Below are positions 15,374 through 36,531 of a stretch of 64,000 nt of DNA, piece by piece. The position numbers and the translations under genes are program-made. Numbering within the stretch: position 1 is the stretch's first letter; each line of letters begins with the position of its first letter. The stretch is taken from NCBI GenBank assembly GCA_963708185.1, contig OY970195.1:352001-416000 (forward strand), in the 5' to 3' direction. This stretch comes from Candidatus Peregrinibacteria bacterium (GTDB lineage Bacteria; Patescibacteriota; Gracilibacteria; UBA1369). Under the pieces are notes generated by a model that saw only the letters and a program-made list of their open reading frames with translations, made no database searches and was not told the DNA's origin.

Positions 15374-15460
15374 TGGTGCCGAGGGCGGGGATCGAACCCG
15401 CACGATATTGCTATCACGGGATTTTAAGTCCCGCGCGTCTGCCAGTTCCGCCACCCCGGC
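15374..15460 (-). tRNA. tRNA-Leu(TAA)
   Basis: Reverse complement GCCGGGGTGGCGGAACTGG...GGGA-CTTAAAA-TCCC...CTCGGCACCA; long variable arm. Confidence 0.95.
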
Positions 15461-15498
15461 GCGTTGTGCTGTTTCCCCAAGACGGGGGTGACTTCAGG

Positions 15499-16089
15499 TT
15501 ATTTCAAGGAGAAGGATTTTACAATCGCCTGAACGACGTTAATATTGTCCGTTGTTTCTTTGGGCGAGTATGAGCCTGTGACGATGTAGGCGTAATTTCC
15601 TTTTACCGCGTACGTCTGGTAAAAAACAAGAAGGTCACTTTGTGCATCTTTTTTTCCTTCAAAGGTTTCTATATAGGTGTCGACGTCCTTTCCTGCGATT
15701 TTTACTTTCACGAGATCCTGTTTGTCTTCTTTGTAGTTGACGAGTCCGGTCTTCTGGCGATTAATGACCTCTTTTGCGTATTCGAGGGACTCAACGCTGT
15801 TCTGGATCGTTCTGCGGATGACGTTCACATTGGCCGTGAAGGTATCATTTTTTACGTTGTTGCGAACGACCAGTGCTGTTTCGGGGGGAACGTCGCTCGT
15901 AAAATTTTTTGATTCGATGACATCCCATTCTCGCGGAATTGTAAGGTTGAATTCGGGGTTATCGATAATCCTGGATTGGTTGTTCGTCGTCGCGTTCTGT
16001 TGGTTTGTTGAACCTCCGCATCCTGCAAGTGCCAGGACAGAGAATGTAATCAATGAGATTTGAAGGAGTTTTTTTGTGGTGGTTTTCAT
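15499..16089 (-). CDS. Lipoprotein, PsbP/DcrB-like fold probable
   Basis: Lipobox LAGC; FNLTIPREW, ANVNV and AYIVT pattern. Confidence 0.75.
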   Translation of the reverse strand: MKTTTKKLLQISLITFSVLALAGCGGSTNQQNATTNNQSRIIDNPEFNLTIPREWDVIESKNFTSDVPPETALVVRNNVKNDTFTANVNVIRRTIQNSVESLEYAKEVINRQKTGLVNYKEDKQDLVKVKIAGKDVDTYIETFEGKKDAQSDLLVFYQTYAVKGNYAYIVTGSYSPKETTDNINVVQAIVKSFSLK

Positions 16090-16191
16090 AGTGATCAAGA
16101 GGAAACACGCTTATTTTACTGGACTTTGCGCCCCGCTACAAATTTTTTGTGATCTTCCATAGATAAAGTCGTTGCGGAAAATTTGGAAGGA

Positions 16192-16219
16192 TTGACAAAA
16201 ATAAAATTCATCCTAAGAT
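16192..16219 (+). promoter_or_regulatory. sigma70 promoter of small-ORF unit 1
   Basis: TTGACA-16 nt-TAAGAT. Confidence 0.6.
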
Positions 16220-16300
16220 GTTTGTTACTTTTTCGGGATTGAAGAAAAGTTTTCTGTTTATCAGCGGAAATGCTTATCTTTACCTGAAAAAGCGATATTT

Positions 16301-16697
16301 GGCAGCAAGGCAGGAGAGAGGTGTCCATGAGTTTGCCTTCAAGCATGCGTCCTCCGTCCAGCAGGAGGAAAGACCAGCTGGTGGATGAGCGTTTTCGTGA
16401 GTGGGAAGCTCGACAGAAGGCCGCTGGAAATCAGCCTGCAAAGCCTTCGTCTGCTCCCGCACGTGATGACAAGGCTCATCAGGGTCTCGACTTCGACGAC
16501 CGTGAAGAGCAGGGAGTCGATGGTGACGGGAAAGGGAAGTAGTCCAACGACCCCGACCCTCACGTTTGATCAACACTTTCAAGGAGGTGTCTCCCCGGAA
16601 TCGATGTCATGAAGTAGGTACGGAGCCGGAGAGGTAGGAACGCGCAGGACGCGTTCCGCCTCTCCGGCTACCGCCGACACTCCACTGTCTTGCTGCC
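16301..16697 (+). other. Long-range inverted-repeat-enclosed RNA unit
   Basis: GGCAGCAAGGCAG (16301-16313) pairs with CTGTCTTGCTGCC (16685-16697, one G-U); GTGTC/GACAC inner helix; hairpin 16624-16669. Confidence 0.75.
16327..16542 (+). CDS. Small hydrophilic orphan protein (71 aa) inside a structured transcript
   Basis: SD-like AGGAGAGAGGTG before ATG 16327; GC-rich relative to flanks. Confidence 0.5.
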   Translation: MSLPSSMRPPSSRRKDQLVDERFREWEARQKAAGNQPAKPSSAPARDDKAHQGLDFDDREEQGVDGDGKGK

Positions 16698-16797
16698 CTA
16701 TCCTTTTTAACTCAATTGTCATGAAATCATCGTTCATGTCTTTTGCATTGTCCAAAAATCTTCTATTATACCTTTGTTATTTTTTGTTTTTTGGTTT

Positions 16798-17766
16798 ATG
16801 AAACAAGTCCAAGTAGGGATTCTTGATTTCAGTAGTCTCAGCAGGCTTCGATCGGCACGCACCGCTGCCAGTTCGACCCCGCGCGAAGTGAAACTTCTCA
16901 AAAATACCGCCATCAAGCTGGGGCATATCGCCAAGATTTATAAGGTGGAAAACTGCCAGCTTTATTTCGACAACCGTAAACCGCTTATTCTTTATAAGAA
17001 CAAACCTATTAAAGGTTGCGATGTTCTGATTCCTCGAGTTTCCGTCGCCGGAGATATCGATCTGGAAATTTCCATCGTCAAACAGTTCAAGATGCTCGGT
17101 ATTCCCGTGGTGAACGATTATCTCCCCACGGTCCGCGCGAAGAATAAATTAAGGACATTGCAGATTTTAACGCACAGGGGAATTCCTGTGCCAAGAACCC
17201 TTGTGGTTCGTAAATTGGAATTTTTAGATGAAGGCATTCAGAAAGTTGGAGGCTATCCGGTCATCATTAAATCTCCCTTCGGTTCTTACGGGGTGGGGGT
17301 TGCCATTACGGAAAGCCGCAGATCGTTATATTCCTCACTGGATATGGTCTGGAAAACGACTTCCTCAAGTATCATTCTTATCCAGGAGTACGTTGCTGAA
17401 GCTGAAGGAAGCGATTTTCGGGCTTTCGTCATCGGAGGAAAAGTCGTTGCTTCGATGCAGCGTAAGGCTGTGCAGGGTGATTTCCGTTCGAACCTTCATC
17501 ACGGCGGTGAAGCCGTGAAAGTGAAACTCAGCACCGAGGAACAGAATCTCGCCATAAGGGCTGCTGAGGCTTTGGGGCTGGATCTTGCGGGAGTCGATCT
17601 CTTACGGACGAGAAAAGGTCCGGTGGTCATGGAGGTGAACGCCAATCCGGGTTTTGAGGGGTTGATGAAAATTACCGGGGTCGACATTGCGACGGAAATG
17701 GTGAAGTACGCCGTCTCGCTCTACAGGAAACAGCAGGAAGCCATCAAAAAGAAAAAGCGGTCCTGA
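16798..17766 (+). CDS. rimK: RimK family ATP-grasp alpha-L-glutamate ligase
   Basis: AKNKLRTLQIL, GIPVPRT, DFRAFVIG, DFRSNLHHGG, EVNANPG. Confidence 0.85.
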   Translation: MKQVQVGILDFSSLSRLRSARTAASSTPREVKLLKNTAIKLGHIAKIYKVENCQLYFDNRKPLILYKNKPIKGCDVLIPRVSVAGDIDLEISIVKQFKMLGIPVVNDYLPTVRAKNKLRTLQILTHRGIPVPRTLVVRKLEFLDEGIQKVGGYPVIIKSPFGSYGVGVAITESRRSLYSSLDMVWKTTSSSIILIQEYVAEAEGSDFRAFVIGGKVVASMQRKAVQGDFRSNLHHGGEAVKVKLSTEEQNLAIRAAEALGLDLAGVDLLRTRKGPVVMEVNANPGFEGLMKITGVDIATEMVKYAVSLYRKQQEAIKKKKRS

Positions 17767-20253: not shown

Positions 20254-21755
<1,502 letters not shown>

Positions 21756-22055
21756 CTAGGAGATATCAGGGAACTTAGGGATTTTTATTTCTAAGCATTT
21801 TCCAGGTCGACCCTCGCTTCGGCGAGGTTTCTAGATCTCTCTCTACTACATTTTGGATGTTAAAGGTACAACCTTTCTTCTTTTCTCTCCTTTATAGGGG
21901 TATGAAATCTTCCAATAGTTTCAACAGGTCGAGTCAAAACATTGAGGTTTCGGTCCGAGCGCACAGCGCGAGGGCGTAAGCTGTGGCTTTGCTACACGCT
22001 GAAGCGTATCGATAGAAGAAAAACCTTATTTTTCAATTTTAACCCTCTCACACAC

Positions 22056-22325
22056 ATGGAAACTCAACAACTCACCTGCCAGGATTGTGGCAACACTTTT
22101 GATTTCACTGCAGAAGAACAACAGTTTTTTGCAGAAAAAGGATTTCAGGAACCAAAGCGCTGCCCTAATTGCCGAAAAGCAAAAAAGGAAGCTCATCGTC
22201 CTACCTTTACGAAGGTAACCTGTTCTGGCTGTGGGATGGAAACCGAGGTCCCGTTCGTACCAAAAGGCGACCGTCCGGTTTACTGCCGTGCTTGTTTTGA
22301 AAAGAACAAAGCAATGTCTGCGTAA
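22056..22325 (+). CDS. Zinc-ribbon / CxxC-x17-CxxC domain protein
   Basis: CQDC..FTAEEQQFF..PKRCPNCR and CSGC..VPFVP..RPVYCRAC. Confidence 0.88.
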   Translation: METQQLTCQDCGNTFDFTAEEQQFFAEKGFQEPKRCPNCRKAKKEAHRPTFTKVTCSGCGMETEVPFVPKGDRPVYCRACFEKNKAMSA

Positions 22326-22345
22326 TTACTGTTTAGGTAATTTGG

Positions 22346-22377
22346 AAGAGGATGTCTGGAAAGACATCCTCTTTTTT
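22346..22377 (+). terminator. Intrinsic terminator
   Basis: AAGAGGATGTC-TGGAAA-GACATCCTCTT plus T-run. Confidence 0.85.
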
Positions 22378-22389
22378 GTAGAAATTCGT

Positions 22390-22417
22390 TTGCAAATTCC
22401 GCGGCTTTCTTTATAAT
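22390..22417 (+). promoter_or_regulatory. Promoter for tRNA-Ala/tRNA-Ile
   Basis: TTGCAA-16 nt-TATAAT. Confidence 0.6.
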
Positions 22418-22522
22418 GATCGAGCTGTTTTGACAGTCAGGCTTTGCAAGTCGTCAATGGCTTGCAGGAGCGCAAAGATGTGGGCCCTTAGCACAAGCTA
22501 AGGTCCCACCGTTTACACTCGT

Positions 22523-22599
22523 GGGCCCTTAGCTCAGTTGGCCAGAGCGCCTCGTTTGCACCGAGGAGGTCAAGGGTTCGACTCCCTTAGGGTCCACCA
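22523..22599 (+). tRNA. tRNA-Ala(TGC)
   Basis: GGGCCCT...AGGGTCC-A-CCA with G3:U70; loop TTTGCAC. Confidence 0.96.
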
Positions 22600-22608
22600 G
22601 AATATTGC

Positions 22609-22685
22609 GGGCGAGTAGCTCAGTTGGTTAGAGCGCGTCACTGATAATGACGAGGTCGGAGGTTCAAATCCTCCCCCGCCCACCA
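22609..22685 (+). tRNA. tRNA-Ile(GAT)
   Basis: GGGCGAG...CCCGCCC-A-CCA; loop CTGATAA. Confidence 0.95.
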
Positions 22686-22754
22686 TGATAGAGTTCCCGG
22701 GACTCTTTTTTGTTTAATGCCTGATCCGGTTTCTGTTACAATGGCTACGATTTA

Positions 22755-23357
22755 ATGTTTTTTATGTCAGGAGAGCTGCTTGCCGCCATCGTTTTTGATC
22801 TTATCCTCTATGGAACTCTGGCTTGTGCGGCCATCCCTCTGCTGTTTTTTTTGTTGTGGACATTTTTCAACTTTTGGAAAAAATACTATCTTCTTTTTTA
22901 TTTTACGGGCATCGTTCTTTTGGCCGCGATTCCTACTGCTTTTTATTTTACGCAGCATTACTGGATTTATCTCTACTATCCTTTCCCCGCATGGGTGCAA
23001 ATCATCGGGCTGATACTTATTATTTTCAGTTATCTTGTCGTGAAACTGGCCCAGGCCTCCATCAGTGTTCCCGTTCGTTTCTTTTTTCCGGTTCTTAAAA
23101 ATCACCCCATTCAATTAAAGACGAAAGGCGTGTATCGATACGTCAGACACCCCATTTATGCGGTGTTTCCTTTGATTGTTATTGGTGGACTTTTGTATAC
23201 CGGCGAGCTGGTGCTTTTCCCGGTTTTCTTCCTGGTCCTTGTGACGAGGAAATGGTATGCCGTCAGGGAAGAGGCGTACCTCAAGCAAAACCTTCACGGT
23301 GACTATGAAAAATATATGAAACAGACTCCCAACCGTTTTTATCCTAAAATTTTTTAA
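22755..23357 (+). CDS. Isoprenylcysteine carboxyl methyltransferase / PEMT family membrane protein
   Basis: Multi-TM; LKTKGVYRYVRHPIY, EEAYL and YEKYMKQTPNRF. Confidence 0.85.
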   Translation: MFFMSGELLAAIVFDLILYGTLACAAIPLLFFLLWTFFNFWKKYYLLFYFTGIVLLAAIPTAFYFTQHYWIYLYYPFPAWVQIIGLILIIFSYLVVKLAQASISVPVRFFFPVLKNHPIQLKTKGVYRYVRHPIYAVFPLIVIGGLLYTGELVLFPVFFLVLVTRKWYAVREEAYLKQNLHGDYEKYMKQTPNRFYPKIF

Positions 23358-23359
23358 GT

Positions 23360-24190
23360 ATGATTTTTTATGCTCTCCATGTTCCGGGTGTTGAAGACGA
23401 AAGACTTGAACTGCTTCGTGCCGCCTGCAAACGTTTGAAGATTTCTTTCAGGGCGTTGTCGCCGTCCGGATTCGATTTTTCCAGGCCTTCCCCCGTGAGA
23501 AAAGGCGACATTGTCTATAGAATCAGCCGAGGTAAACTGCTTCGGTTTTTTGAGGATTACATCGTCAGGCCCGGTTGTATCACGTTTTATCAAGACGTCA
23601 TTTTCCATAAACCGGATCCATTTTTTCTTGAGAAGCATGACATTCCTGTTCCAAAAACCGTTTTTTGTCTCACCAGAGAGAAGAAGCTTTTGATGAACTA
23701 CGTGAAGGAGATCGGGGGATTCCCGGTCATTCTCAAAGCCTTGGGTGGAACGCACGGAATGGGGGTCATCAAAATTGACTCTTTTTCAGCGCTCAAAAGT
23801 ATGGCGGATTTTTTGTTAGCCCAGGGGAAATTGTTTGTGCTTAAACAGTTTTTACCCGTAAAGACTTCCGCACGTTTTATCGTTCTCGGGGATAAAGTCG
23901 TTGCCTCGATTGAATACGTCGCTCGGGACAATGACTTCCGGACGAATTCAGCCAAAACGCTCACTGTCCGTCCAAAAAAATATTCAAAAGCCCTTGAAGA
24001 ACTGGCGGTCAGAGCCACACACGCCATGGGTTGGGAGTTCGGTGGGGTTGATATTCTCATTCATAAAGGTAAACCTTACGTTTCCGAAGTGAATTTTCCC
24101 TGCAATTTTGTACGGGCTCAAAATGCCCTCAATAAGGACGTCGCTCTCCTTATGGTTCAATATCTTCAGGCAAAAGCGAAAAAACTTTAA
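23360..24190 (+). CDS. Divergent RimK-like ATP-grasp protein
   Basis: IPVPKT, GGFPVILK..GGTHGMGV, DFRTN, GVDI and EVN motifs. Confidence 0.8.
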   Translation: MIFYALHVPGVEDERLELLRAACKRLKISFRALSPSGFDFSRPSPVRKGDIVYRISRGKLLRFFEDYIVRPGCITFYQDVIFHKPDPFFLEKHDIPVPKTVFCLTREKKLLMNYVKEIGGFPVILKALGGTHGMGVIKIDSFSALKSMADFLLAQGKLFVLKQFLPVKTSARFIVLGDKVVASIEYVARDNDFRTNSAKTLTVRPKKYSKALEELAVRATHAMGWEFGGVDILIHKGKPYVSEVNFPCNFVRAQNALNKDVALLMVQYLQAKAKKL

Positions 24191-25287
24191 AGCAGGTCTC
24201 GGGTTATTTTGTCGATGATAAGGAATCCTTCATCGGTCGGACTCAGGAATCGTCCGTCCAAAACAAGTTCTTTGCTTTCTAGATAGGGTTGCGCCTTTTT
24301 GAGCAATTCGGATGTTTTTTTGAATCTCTTTTTGAATTCGGACGTGTCGATACCGCGTTTTGTTCGCAAACGAAGCATGATGTAATCGAGTTCACGCAGT
24401 TCAGCGTCCATGGGAACCTCTTCGTTCATATCGTCGGGGGTCGACAAATACCGGTCGAAGTCCCTCGTGTTTTCGGTACATTTGTCATTGATATAGGAGT
24501 GTGCGCCGATGCCGAGCCCAACGTACTCTTTTTGGCTCCAGTATCTTAAATTATGTTGGCATTCATAGCCGGGTTTTGCGTAGTTCGAAACTTCATAATG
24601 GTTGTATCCTGCTTTTCTTAAACGCGTGACAAGGTGTTCGTACATGGCGACCTGTACGTCGTCGTTGGGGCAGTCCGCTTTGAAAAGATCGATCTTTTTC
24701 GTGTCATAGGACAAGAAATAAAAAGAAAGGTGGGGGATATTGAGATCGAGGATTGTTGAGAGCTGGGTCTTGAAGTGTTGGAGCGTCTGGTGGGGGAGTC
24801 CGAGGATGAAGTCCGCACCGTAATTTTTCATGGGGGAACTGCGGATGGCATCAAGGGCTTTGAAGATGGTTTTGTCATCATGCGGACGGGCGATGCGGAA
24901 AAGAATTTTTTTGTCGAAATTCTGGATGCCGAGGGAGACGCGGGTTACTCCAGCTTGGTGATAGATCCTAAGTTTTTTTTCGTCGATGCTTTCCGGGTTG
25001 CATTCAATGGAGATTTCCGGTTTTTTTTGTATGTTAAAGCTGTGCCTGATGCATTGAAGGATATCCTCGATATAATGAGCTTCGATCAAACTCGGCGTTC
25101 CGCCACCGAAGTACAAGGTTTCGACCTGGTAATCCCGGAGTTCTTTAGACTTCAGCCCTATCTCTTTTTTGAGCGCTTCGACGTAATCAGGTATGAATTT
25201 GTTTTTATGGGCGAACGTCAGGAAATTACAATAGAGACAGATTGTTTTGCAAAAGGGGATATGGATGTAGAGAGAAAGGTCTTTCAT
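24187..25287 (-). CDS. hemW: Radical SAM HemW/HemN-like protein
   Basis: LYIHIPFCKTICLYC (CxxxCxxC), YFGGGTPS, HYEVSNY, HNLRYW. Confidence 0.88.
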   Translation of the reverse strand: MKDLSLYIHIPFCKTICLYCNFLTFAHKNKFIPDYVEALKKEIGLKSKELRDYQVETLYFGGGTPSLIEAHYIEDILQCIRHSFNIQKKPEISIECNPESIDEKKLRIYHQAGVTRVSLGIQNFDKKILFRIARPHDDKTIFKALDAIRSSPMKNYGADFILGLPHQTLQHFKTQLSTILDLNIPHLSFYFLSYDTKKIDLFKADCPNDDVQVAMYEHLVTRLRKAGYNHYEVSNYAKPGYECQHNLRYWSQKEYVGLGIGAHSYINDKCTENTRDFDRYLSTPDDMNEEVPMDAELRELDYIMLRLRTKRGIDTSEFKKRFKKTSELLKKAQPYLESKELVLDGRFLSPTDEGFLIIDKITRDLL

Positions 25288-25354
25288 GGTTGGTTCGATT
25301 GGATTGAAGCCGTTTTTATGCTATAATGATAGAAAGTTAACACACCTTCATAAT

Positions 25355-25606
25355 ATGGATCGTATTTTTGCAGCAGTCATCGGGATTCCCCTGGGGTTCC
25401 TCATGATGATCTACAGGTATCACCTTAAACAGTTTACAGGTCCTATTCAATGGGCAGAACAATATTTGGGGTCCGGAGGAACCTATAATCTTTTCATCAT
25501 TGTCGGTTTGTTGATTTCGATCGTTTCACTCATGTACGCTTTGGGTACGATTCAGGATCTTTTTACCAGCGGATTGGGTCCTATTTTCGGTGTCGGACAG
25601 AGCTAA
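25355..25606 (+). CDS. Small two-TM membrane protein
   Basis: 83 aa MDRIFAAVIG..WAEQYLGSGGTY; TATAAT at 25322 upstream. Confidence 0.7.
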   Translation: MDRIFAAVIGIPLGFLMMIYRYHLKQFTGPIQWAEQYLGSGGTYNLFIIVGLLISIVSLMYALGTIQDLFTSGLGPIFGVGQS

Positions 25607-25637
25607 AACCCTTCAGGAGAATTTCGTTAAAAATTTC

Positions 25638-25666
25638 TTGACTTCAGGTGACTGCTTACTTATAAT
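25638..25666 (+). promoter_or_regulatory. Dedicated 23S-5S promoter
   Basis: TTGACT-17 nt-TATAAT; boxA TGTTCTTTAACA at about 25806-25817. Confidence 0.8.
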
Positions 25667-25942
25667 GCAGTGGCCTCAATTTGAGATTGAGATTTACTGA
25701 ATGGTTTTTACCTCACAAATTTCGCCCATATCCCTAAGCTTAAAGTGCTGATTTCACTTGGTCAGGACTTTGAGTTGAGGGGTGTGTGCGAACACATCCC
25801 TTTTTTGTTCTTTAACAATTGGGCCTCAAAAGAATGATTGATAAATCAATCTGTAATTTCATTTGAGAGTTATTCAATAAACAATAGTATCATACTCAAT
25901 ATTAGCTGCGAGTATTCACTCACAGCTAGTTAAATGGATGAT

Positions 25943-29063
<3,121 letters not shown>

Positions 29064-29240
29064 TTCATCTTTATGTACATCTGTCAGTACTTAGTCCCGC
29101 GTTAAAACGGGATTGAGTACTGACAATCATGTACTCGTTTAACTAGCTTTGAGTGCAGACAAGCTAGAGAAATTACAGACATTTATCATTCAGTCTGCGA
29201 GGCCCTTGTTAAAACATTCAGGCCAGTGCTAAAAGGCACT

Positions 29241-29359
29241 GTCTTGGCAGCTCTAGAGAGTGGGTCACACCTGTTCCCATCCCGAACACAGCAGTTAAGC
29301 CACTCTTCGCCGATGATACTCATAGTATAACTAAGGGGAAAGTAGGGCGCTGCCAGGAC
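29241..29359 (+). rRNA. rrf: 5S rRNA
   Basis: TCTTGGCAG...CACCTGTTCCCATCCCGAACAC..GTTAAGC..GCCGATGATAC..AGTAGG..CTGCCAGGA. Confidence 0.95.
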
Positions 29360-35931: not shown

Positions 35932-35960
35932 TTGACCAAATTAAGTAAATATGGTATAAA
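35932..35960 (+). promoter_or_regulatory. sigma70 promoter of small-ORF unit 2
   Basis: TTGACC-17 nt-TATAAA with extended -10 TG. Confidence 0.65.
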
Positions 35961-36017
35961 ATATCTGTGGTTTATCATGAAAATACAACAGTATTTTTTC
36001 TGTGGTAAATCCAATCA

Positions 36018-36388
36018 GATCTTTGAAAACTTGTGTAAGGACATCTTGAATGGAAGACTGGTGCTTCAAATTAAGCGCTATACTCCCATTCAAGATAAAC
36101 GGCTTTTAGCCACTATTTCGGACATATATGTCCGAGGAGAAAAAGAGAACATGAGCAAGAACACTGTTTCCGTCGTCGTCGCTTCGAACTCTTTCTTCAG
36201 CAACCTGAGCGAGCTCGACAAGCTGCTCGCTTTGTGGGCCCTGAGCCTCGGCTACATGCCGGTTATCGGCTTGATGCTGATGACCATCGGCAAGTAAAGC
36301 GGACCGCAGGGCCTCCCCGCCATTCTGTTTTCGGAATGTGCGGGGAGCCCATGGCCCTTTCTCCTGAATAATCCTTATGCAAGTTTTC
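36018..36388 (+). other. boxA-led RNA unit enclosed by a long-range duplex
   Basis: GATCTTTGAAAA at 36018; 36025-36041 pairs with 36372-36388 (17 bp, two G-U); AGGAGAAA 36135-36142 pairs with TTTCTCCT 36358-36365; hairpins 36043-36096, 36118-36135 and 36309-36350. Confidence 0.8.
36151..36297 (+). CDS. 48-aa peptide with hydrophobic C-terminal segment
   Basis: SD AGGAG upstream; MSKNTVSVVVASNSFFSNLSELDKLLALWALSLGYMPVIGLMLMTIGK. Confidence 0.6.
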   Translation: MSKNTVSVVVASNSFFSNLSELDKLLALWALSLGYMPVIGLMLMTIGK

Positions 36389-36531
36389 TATTCTTTCGAT
36401 CACTAAGCGCTGAAAAGCGTTTTTTTTGTGTTTCGGTCCTTCGCGTCGACTCAGCTTGGCAATTTTGGCTTTTTTTGGTATACTATAAAGATAAATTTGG
36501 TCTTCACTCCAAAATAAATATCAACACCAAC

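Follow-up and report, generated by a model that had tools for sequence, protein, structure and literature searches.

To our knowledge, pairing between the untranslated regions (UTRs) at the 5' and 3' ends of one and the same mRNA is known for only a few bacterial transcripts, hbs, icaR and hok, all of them from model organisms. The STAB-SD stabilisers of Bacillus mRNAs are located in 5' leaders. In the hbs mRNA of Bacillus subtilis, a 14-nt interaction is described that joins the 5' UTR, past the 5' hairpins, to the 3' UTR before the terminator and that limits cleavage by RNase Y, as proven with compensatory mutants (Braun, Durand & Condon 2017, PMC5737220). For icaR of Staphylococcus aureus, the account is of a 3'-UTR motif, UCCCCUG, that pairs with the Shine-Dalgarno (SD) sequence, blocks initiation and creates a site for RNase III (Ruiz de los Mozos et al. 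2013, PMC3868564), and the full-length hok mRNA is portrayed as stabilised by 5'/3' tac/fbi pairing with its SD held in a stem (PMC9841398). Here we analyse a short unit, at positions 16192-16710 of a 64,000-nt stretch of a Candidatus Peregrinibacteria genome (assembly GCA_963708185.1, contig OY970195.1, positions 352,001 to 416,000 of the forward strand; hereafter the window), which encodes a protein of 71 amino acids (aa) and whose predicted mRNA is complementary at its two ends. We put at about one in two the probability that this is a monocistronic small-protein mRNA whose stability is controlled, and whose SD is in part occluded, by a 5'/3'-UTR interaction such as those of hbs and icaR.

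An earlier reading of this DNA, the original prediction, had described a unit with its own promoter, a 13-bp pairing of its two ends that includes one G-U pair, a hydrophilic open reading frame (ORF) of 71 aa, a second SD-like sequence, a very stable 46-nt hairpin and a T-run, all in a GC-rich interior between AT-rich flanks. Every one of these features was found present in the sequence (Table 1), the GC content being 0.57-0.62 within the unit against 0.26-0.33 in the flanks. The promoter is the best of six promoter-like sites found by a consensus scan of 15400-17000. RNAfold of 16225-16710 (486 nt) gave -219.5 kcal/mol with a z-score of -9.3, a value equalled by none of 100 shuffles, and in the ensemble of the 16226-16712 RNA all 13 pairs of the closing helix, among them G16310-U16688, form with a probability (P) of 1.00. 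The duplex between the ends is well above chance expectation. When the 43 nt before the ATG were paired with the 43 nt before the T-run the energy was -36.7 kcal/mol, which was reached by 0 of 3000 GC-matched segment pairs taken 375 nt apart from the same genome (mean -19.7, standard deviation 4.8, minimum -36.0). Inverted repeats of such a size are frequent, with 38 pairs in the 64-kb window; the helix is notable for its position and strength and not for existing as an inverted repeat.

The genome of the window (G000) is a 1.44-Mb single contig, which we compared with three genomes of the same genus (G002, G003 and G004) and two of a neighbouring genus (G041 and G010). BLAST over 41 relatives found a DNA match only in G004, with 69% identity over query positions 200-396 (E 1.5e-14) and a further short piece over the 5' arm. 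The G004 locus is syntenic and occupies the same interval between a lipoprotein gene and a rimK-like ATP-grasp gene that flanks the unit in G000, and a promoter counterpart, TTGACA-16-TAGACT, stands at the aligned place. Both arms of the helix are conserved, the 5' arm inside a 16-nt block, TTTGGCAGCAAGGCAG, that is invariant at 16/16 positions and the 3' arm as given in Table 1, so that the original prediction withstands the arm-conservation test that it had set for itself. Further conserved blocks in the 3' region are AAGTAGGTA.GGAGCCGGA, the hairpin tip, TCCGGC.ACCGCCGA and TCCTTTTT. UTR blocks of 16, 12, 19 and 13 nt are identical or nearly so between two genomes in which the neighbouring rimK-like gene has a proportion of synonymous differences (pS) of 0.78, which is saturated, and a proportion of non-synonymous differences (pN) of 0.11; because neutral sites are saturated, this conservation is meaningful. 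In G004, too, the closing helix is part of the predicted RNA fold (z = -4.8), and all 54 pairs of the three helices, that is the 5'-leader stem-loop, the closing helix and the long 3' hairpin, form in both genomes. Compensatory changes occur at ten pairs, where slid controls yield 0-3. Six of these pairs are among the 18 consensus pairs of the leader stem-loop, changed on both sides, and four among the 23 of the long hairpin, whose base and tip are invariant.

We then considered how far closure of the ends would reach the ribosome-binding site. In the full-length RNA the helix is extended by pairing of 16322-16325 with 16676-16679 at P >= 0.96 and, more weakly (P 0.2-0.6), of 16316-16321 with 16680-16682; as in icaR, a 3'-UTR motif (16676-16683) is complementary to the SD of its own mRNA (16316-16325). 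In the minimum free energy (MFE) structure of G004 the SD region pairs with a different 3' segment, ACGCC...AUCUUUUCG. SD accessibility was taken as the mean unpaired probability from the SD to the AUG in folds of truncated transcripts. It stays at 0.45-0.65 until the 3' arm has been transcribed; for the window, addition of that arm takes it from about 0.56 down to 0.38, and for G004 from 0.54 to 0.40. Occlusion of the SD is, in these models, partial and not total. One compact unit with its own promoter is what the original prediction described, and this stands; its full-length RNA that is translationally silent and activated by 3' processing, or translated only co-transcriptionally, is a conjecture.

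The genome encodes RNase III, RNase J (579.9 bits), PNPase (936.9 bits) and two RNase Y-like proteins (G000:C1:253084-254586 and 1196606-1198114; 605.8 and 419.4 bits), and no match for RNase E/G was obtained in it. Judged from its genes, this nuclease set is that of the Bacillus type of mRNA decay. The likeness to hbs is accordingly one of layout and of host: a small-protein mRNA of a few hundred nucleotides, in which 5' hairpins are followed by a 13-14-nt segment complementary to one near the 3' end, a strong SD, and a host that encodes RNase Y, RNase J and PNPase. It is a predicted likeness only, without sequence similarity, and there are differences. The 3' arm lies after the big hairpin and right before the U-run, whereas the hbs segment stands just upstream of a canonical terminator; the helix reaches the SD; and the protein is an orphan, not HU. 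With icaR the unit shares a C-rich anti-SD motif in the 3' UTR, GACACUCC, that is predicted to pair with its own SD, and a host that encodes RNase III. It departs from icaR in that a separate 13-bp helix does most of the closing and in that SD occlusion is only partial; its 3' UTR is about 165 nt, that of icaR being described simply as long (PMC3868564). Closure of a full-length mRNA by 5'/3' pairing with the SD in a stem, predicted here, is also a trait of hok; the product, however, is hydrophilic and disordered rather than a small membrane toxin, and a consensus scan for promoters showed no antisense gene against the leader. Like the STAB-SD elements, the unit has a perfect SD-like sequence with no conserved ORF behind it, but this 9-mer lies in the 3' UTR. 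By analogy, then, the elements of the unit match known types of stabiliser in RNase Y/J bacteria.

On the reading that we favour, the gene would be transcribed into an mRNA of roughly 490 nt that carries a 5'-terminal stem-loop, a 13-nt arm ahead of the SD, a 3' hairpin and a ribosome-binding-like 9-mer in the 3' UTR. The 5'/3'-UTR helix would close the finished transcript and so shield both RNA ends and the leader against nucleases. By stacking on the short helix between SD and anti-SD it would lower, and not abolish, the access of ribosomes to the start site, and closure would dampen initiation on the completed transcript. What the sequences show are the elements, their conservation in the one homologous locus, the covariation of the two hairpins, the coding status of the ORF and the nuclease set; that the helix forms in the cell, and that it acts on stability and translation, we infer. 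If this is true, an uncultivated lineage would supply a clean and compact example. Within its 490 nt the unit brings together stabiliser-like elements in unusual completeness. Should the pairing be real, it would offer a small natural cassette in which to study mRNA closure, stability and translation in RNase Y/J bacteria; should it not be, what is left is still a correctly delimited orphan gene.

Table 1 Features of the unit in window coordinates
Feature	Position	Strand	Remarks
Imperfect direct repeat flanking the unit, left CAAATTTTTTGTGATC, right CAATTGTCATGAAATC	16139..16154 and 16713-16728		identified by eye from the alignment
Sigma-70-type promoter, TTGACA-16 nt-TAAGAT	16192..16219	+	10/12 consensus positions
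5'-leader stem-loop, transcript start	16228..16292	+	in MFE structure; 18 consensus pairs with G004
Closing helix, 5' arm GGCAGCAAGGCAG	16301..16313	+	predicted to pair with 16685-16697, P = 1.00
SD region GAGAGAGGTG and ATG at 16327	16314..16329	+	AGGTGT.CATGA kept in G004
ORF, 71 aa and stop (16540-16542)	16327..16542	+	hydrophilic; one helix and acidic disordered tail predicted
Perfect SD-like 9-mer AAGGAGGTG	16581..16589	+	3' UTR, 38 nt past the stop; no conserved ORF after it
AAGTAGGTA, then long GC-rich hairpin (core 16624-16669), then ACCGCCGA	16612..16675	+	
Anti-SD-like GACACTCC	16676..16683	+	predicted to pair with the true SD in MFE structure and ensemble
Closing helix, 3' arm CTGTCTTGCTGCC	16685..16697	+	12/13 nt the same in G004; the change keeps G-U
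Tail CTATCCTTTTTAA, T-run 16704-16708	16698..16710	+	TCCTTTTT kept in G004

A second, unrelated unit that may be closed in the same way was found about 20 kb away, after lepA (window 35932-36432; unit 2, the first being unit 1). It has a promoter of the form TTGACC...TATAAA and a fold z-score of -10.3, and its arms, 36025-36041 and 36372-36388, pair in a 5'/3' helix of 15-17 nt that encloses a GC hairpin and a 48-aa ORF (36153-36299) with a hydrophobic C-terminus; a small hairpin with a U8 terminator stands farther downstream. Of the two, unit 2 has the stronger resemblance to a unit of the type I toxin style. Homologues of unit 2 in G004 and G002 keep the arms, although a different small ORF, or two of them, makes up the interior; the enclosed ORFs of the three genomes are of the small membrane-protein kind. 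Of the arms, the 3' one shows no variation. The 5' arm varies at three positions, as a result of which G000 has two wobble pairs and G002 has one A-C mismatch, and in the extension of the helix one G-C pair has changed to A-U between G000 and G004. End-pairing of small-gene mRNAs therefore looks like a recurring design in the genus, and unit 2 counts in favour of the reading that we prefer for unit 1. As a separate observation, the tails past the 3' arms of the two units are alike within each genome. In the window they are 16698-16710 and 36389-36400 (CTATCCTTTTTA and CTATTCTTTCGA in G000), and in G004 both units share an identical 14-nt tail, CATTTCCTTTTTTA (L010, minus strand, about 1468-1481; L216, 2363-2376).

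Several observations weigh against the hbs/icaR-like interpretation of unit 1. The first concerns the closing helix itself, which holds no compensatory pair: 12 of its pairs are invariant and one has changed from GC to GU, in a comparison of two sequences only. The covariation that the original prediction called for was thus seen in the two hairpins and not in the closing helix, and because of this the pairing of the arms rests on conservation and thermodynamics. Invariant pairs are neutral on pairing, and some other cause could lie behind the conservation of the arms. Second, SD accessibility is predicted to fall by a modest amount, about 0.17. The original prediction had the duplex cover the SD region right up to the ATG, and this applies to 16322-16325 and only weakly to 16316-16321; the AUG is only about 0.3 paired in the ensemble and hence mostly free. 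Third, there is no canonical intrinsic terminator (a U-tract 0-2 nt after a hairpin) in the unit, the long hairpin ending at 16669 and the T-run starting at 16704, and read-through into the rimK-like gene would change the picture. Fourth, the unit is, by its distribution, dispensable, being absent from the same intergenic site in G002 and G003, where about 150 nt separate the flanking genes, and from the same site in G041 and G010. Finally, two genome-wide scans, both crude, gave no excess. The first counted exact 11-mer inverted repeats with a spacing of 120-650 nt and gave 229 of them, compared with 281 in the reverse-sequence control. When the best duplex of each of 249 promoter-like sites with segments before T-runs was sought, 56 duplexes at or below -30 kcal/mol were found against 49 in shuffled sequence, and the scan equalled the shuffled controls at every threshold, with unit 1 ranked second.

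The top duplex candidates that neighbour unit 1 in this last scan, at 241039 and 1086327, lie inside long ORFs and lack an Rfam match. Other candidates include G000:C1:356312 (window about 4312), 641984 and 256924, which may be due to chance, as the scan equals its control; from their first residues only, we take the genes at these three places to resemble those of ribosomal proteins S21 and S20 and of GroES.

Of the other explanations, the one that survives best, though we consider it unlikely, is that the closing helix and the U-run form a very long-range terminator stem, or a stem for processing by RNase III of the sort that flanks rRNA, which defines the ends of the RNA and does not gate translation. 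The U-run begins 6 nt past the 3' arm in both genomes, TCCTTTTT is conserved, no other terminator-like site is present within the unit, and RNase III is encoded. Unit 2 is also U-rich past its 3' arm, and the G004 units have the tail CATTTCCTTTTTTA in common. As a terminator, however, a stem with a loop of about 370 nt would be kinetically poor, the 6-nt spacer exceeds the canonical 0-2 nt, and unit 2 has a hairpin and U8 terminator of its own downstream.

The ORF is clearly a real protein gene of a conserved orphan family. Alignment of the 71-aa protein of G000 with the 76-aa protein of G004 scored 97.5, against 2.3 +/- 9.7 for 500 shuffles, and the frame of the ORF scored 133, against at most 85 for the five other frames. 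Differences between the two genomes fall 30, 24 and 40 times at codon positions 1, 2 and 3, pN is 0.385 against a pS of 0.70, and the gaps in the alignment are all multiples of three. A profile search of 1.84 billion representatives yielded a family of four proteins of 71-83 aa (E 2e-38, 2e-33, 5e-14 and 5e-5), the members beyond G000 and G004 being P0003 (77 aa, E 4.7e-14) and P0004 (83 aa, E 5.3e-5); a search of 5.8 billion clusters returned the same four and added none. The proteins share an N-terminal block, PPSS.R...QLAe.RI.EWQ.RQ, a Pro/Ala-rich linker of varying length and a C-terminal block, DLDFDDREEQ..D..GK, and in three of the four the C-terminal residue is Lys, not Glu. AlphaFold, run with the four-row alignment, predicted a helix at residues 11-32 with a predicted local distance difference test score (pLDDT) of 76-86 and disorder elsewhere (mean pLDDT 61), so that the 71-aa product is modelled as one amphipathic helix with an acidic disordered tail. 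No Pfam family matched at E <= 10 and no NCBIfam, PADLOC or PDB entry (chains, for PDB) at E <= 1; PHROGs gave one weak match (E 0.069) for one of the four members, and the best Atlas score was 0.76, below lead level. On these searches the protein is lineage-restricted and belongs to a four-member family not previously described.

As the ORF is conserved as a protein, a pure non-coding RNA is unlikely. The original prediction had offered a structured non-coding RNA as an alternative, and the four-member family with its conserved motifs, in-frame length changes and pN below pS leave that suggestion unsupported. A milder version, which we regard as distinctly unlikely, is a structured or dual-function RNA whose 3' domain (the 9-mer, AAGTAGGTA, the hairpin, CACTCC and UCCUUUUU) acts as RNA, for instance by binding 30S subunits or other SDs, with the ORF secondary. 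The 3' UTR is the best-conserved part of the DNA, the only piece that BLAST found at E 1.5e-14 (69% identity), and it contains unpaired blocks that are invariant as well as two anti-SD-like motifs, in an RNA with a strong fold z-score. Against this stand the clear conservation of the protein and the lack of an Rfam family, and a covariance model of the 3' domain that, over 151 genomes of the order, made real matches only in G000 and G004. The same model gave four weaker matches (E 0.1-0.3), which were left uninspected; a match in G152 (E 0.0055) was discarded, as it falls within a 752-aa ORF.

We also weighed a type I toxin mRNA of the hok kind, inert by fold-back, switched on by trimming of its 3' end and opposed by an antisense RNA, and judge it very unlikely. 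The product here, hydrophilic and for the most part disordered, is no small membrane toxin like that of hok; it has no membrane segment and no PADLOC or Pfam match, and its pN below pS is the pattern of an ordinary gene. What recalls hok is the 5'/3' pairing with SD occlusion, as in the tac/fbi stem described for hok (PMC9841398), and the pairing of the 5' arm in the nascent RNA with the adjoining downstream segment 16324-16348 (P about 0.47), which resembles a metastable hairpin; no such nascent hairpin is evident in G004, on inspection of the sequence with no nascent fold run. PNPase is encoded and the distribution of the unit is patchy. The consensus scan found no minus-strand promoter in 16226-16330, that is none antisense to the leader. 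It did find one weak minus-strand promoter-like site downstream of the unit, TGGACA-17-GATGAT (16754 to 16726), with a counterpart in G004, TTGGGA-17-TACAAT, and this too has been counted in favour of the hok-like view. The site is directed into the 3' end of the unit and overlaps the promoter region of the rimK-like gene; an antisense RNA against the 3' arm could be conceived from it.

A last mechanism builds on the SD-like 9-mer of the 3' UTR. In such a 'closed-loop' mRNA the helix would bring the 9-mer beside the partly occluded start, terminating ribosomes or free 30S subunits would be captured at the 3' UTR and returned to the start of their own mRNA, and GACACUCC, as the single anti-SD, would alternate between the decoy and the true SD; we hold this to be highly doubtful. 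On the same reading, unit 2 would suggest that the clade may employ end-pairing generally in its small-protein genes. The 9-mer AAGGAGGTG is an exact complement of the 16S 3' end, CACCTCCTT, and is one of 12 copies in the genome, three of which stand ahead of an ORF. It lies within TTCAAGGAGGTG, which is invariant in G004, at a conserved distance of 35-38 nt behind the stop codon, and no ORF follows it in G004. The original prediction was right about the second SD-like sequence; the local hairpin in which it placed it (ACAC/GUGU, 16573-16590) has just 4 bp, and its arms are not retained in G004. The 9-mer can pair with 16676-16683, with cognate duplexes of -13.9 kcal/mol (window) and -14.0 kcal/mol (G004), compared with -7.8 kcal/mol for the non-cognate duplex of the G004 9-mer region with the window 3' segment; GUGUC/GACAC of the window corresponds to GUGAAUC/GAUUCAC in G004. 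Forcing this pairing in the full window RNA costs 7.9 kcal/mol. A switch between true and decoy SD is not claimed, since the decoy state is less stable by that amount and G004 has separate partners for each.

That the unit is a regulatory leader with an upstream ORF for the rimK-like gene, its small protein perhaps being a substrate or partner of the ligase, deserves very little credence: the gene starts 258 nt downstream on the same strand with no canonical terminator in between, and the C-terminal region of the small protein is acidic, but the gene keeps a promoter-like site for itself, TTTGCA-16-TATTAT (16742-16769), which is found in G004 as well; it occurs without the unit in G002, G003, G041 and G010; and Lys, not Glu, is the last residue in three of the four family members. 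This ATP-grasp gene is single in the genus of G000, unlike the tandem duplicates elsewhere in the family, which were seen in many genomes (L024, L026, L027, L032, L033, L037, L038 and others).

Of 205 genomes of the order searched in six frames with the protein profile, 2 were found to carry the gene, and there is no second copy of the unit anywhere in the G000 genome. An exact 18-nt motif retrieved 19 stretches from genome_contigs (species representatives), one of them real (L047, with the same sequence as the G004 locus), and 23 from metagenome_contigs, none of them real. In viral_contigs the protein profile gave 264 pattern matches, none confirmed; the 14-nt 5' arm occurred in at least 117 stretches there, which were taken as chance for so short a pattern and left uninspected. 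Amino-acid identities of the rimK-like protein are 83-85% between G000 and its congeners and 92-94% among G002, G003 and G004, which places G000 outside that group. The simplest history on this basis would be a unit present in the ancestor of the genus and later lost, and the saturated pS of the ORF fits vertical descent. The imperfect direct repeats of Table 1 border a unit of roughly 575 nt, and G002 and G003, which are without the unit, have one copy of the element; this fits either insertion with duplication of the site or deletion between short repeats.

Rfam 15 at the gathering threshold matched rRNAs and tRNAs in the whole window and nothing in 16100-16800; at E <= 10 the same interval gave only chance miRNA-hairpin models on the long hairpin, the best at 21.9 bits against a threshold of 97. 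An identity with RNase P RNA, suspected from a GAGGAAAGaCC-like string, was rejected, as RNase P RNA lies elsewhere in the genome. The rRNA genes of the window are dispersed over 20254-29358, with the 16S at 20254-21755, two tRNAs at 22523-22682 and the 23S only at 25947-29062; the 23S match is 3116 nt long against a model of 2925 positions and may carry an insertion.

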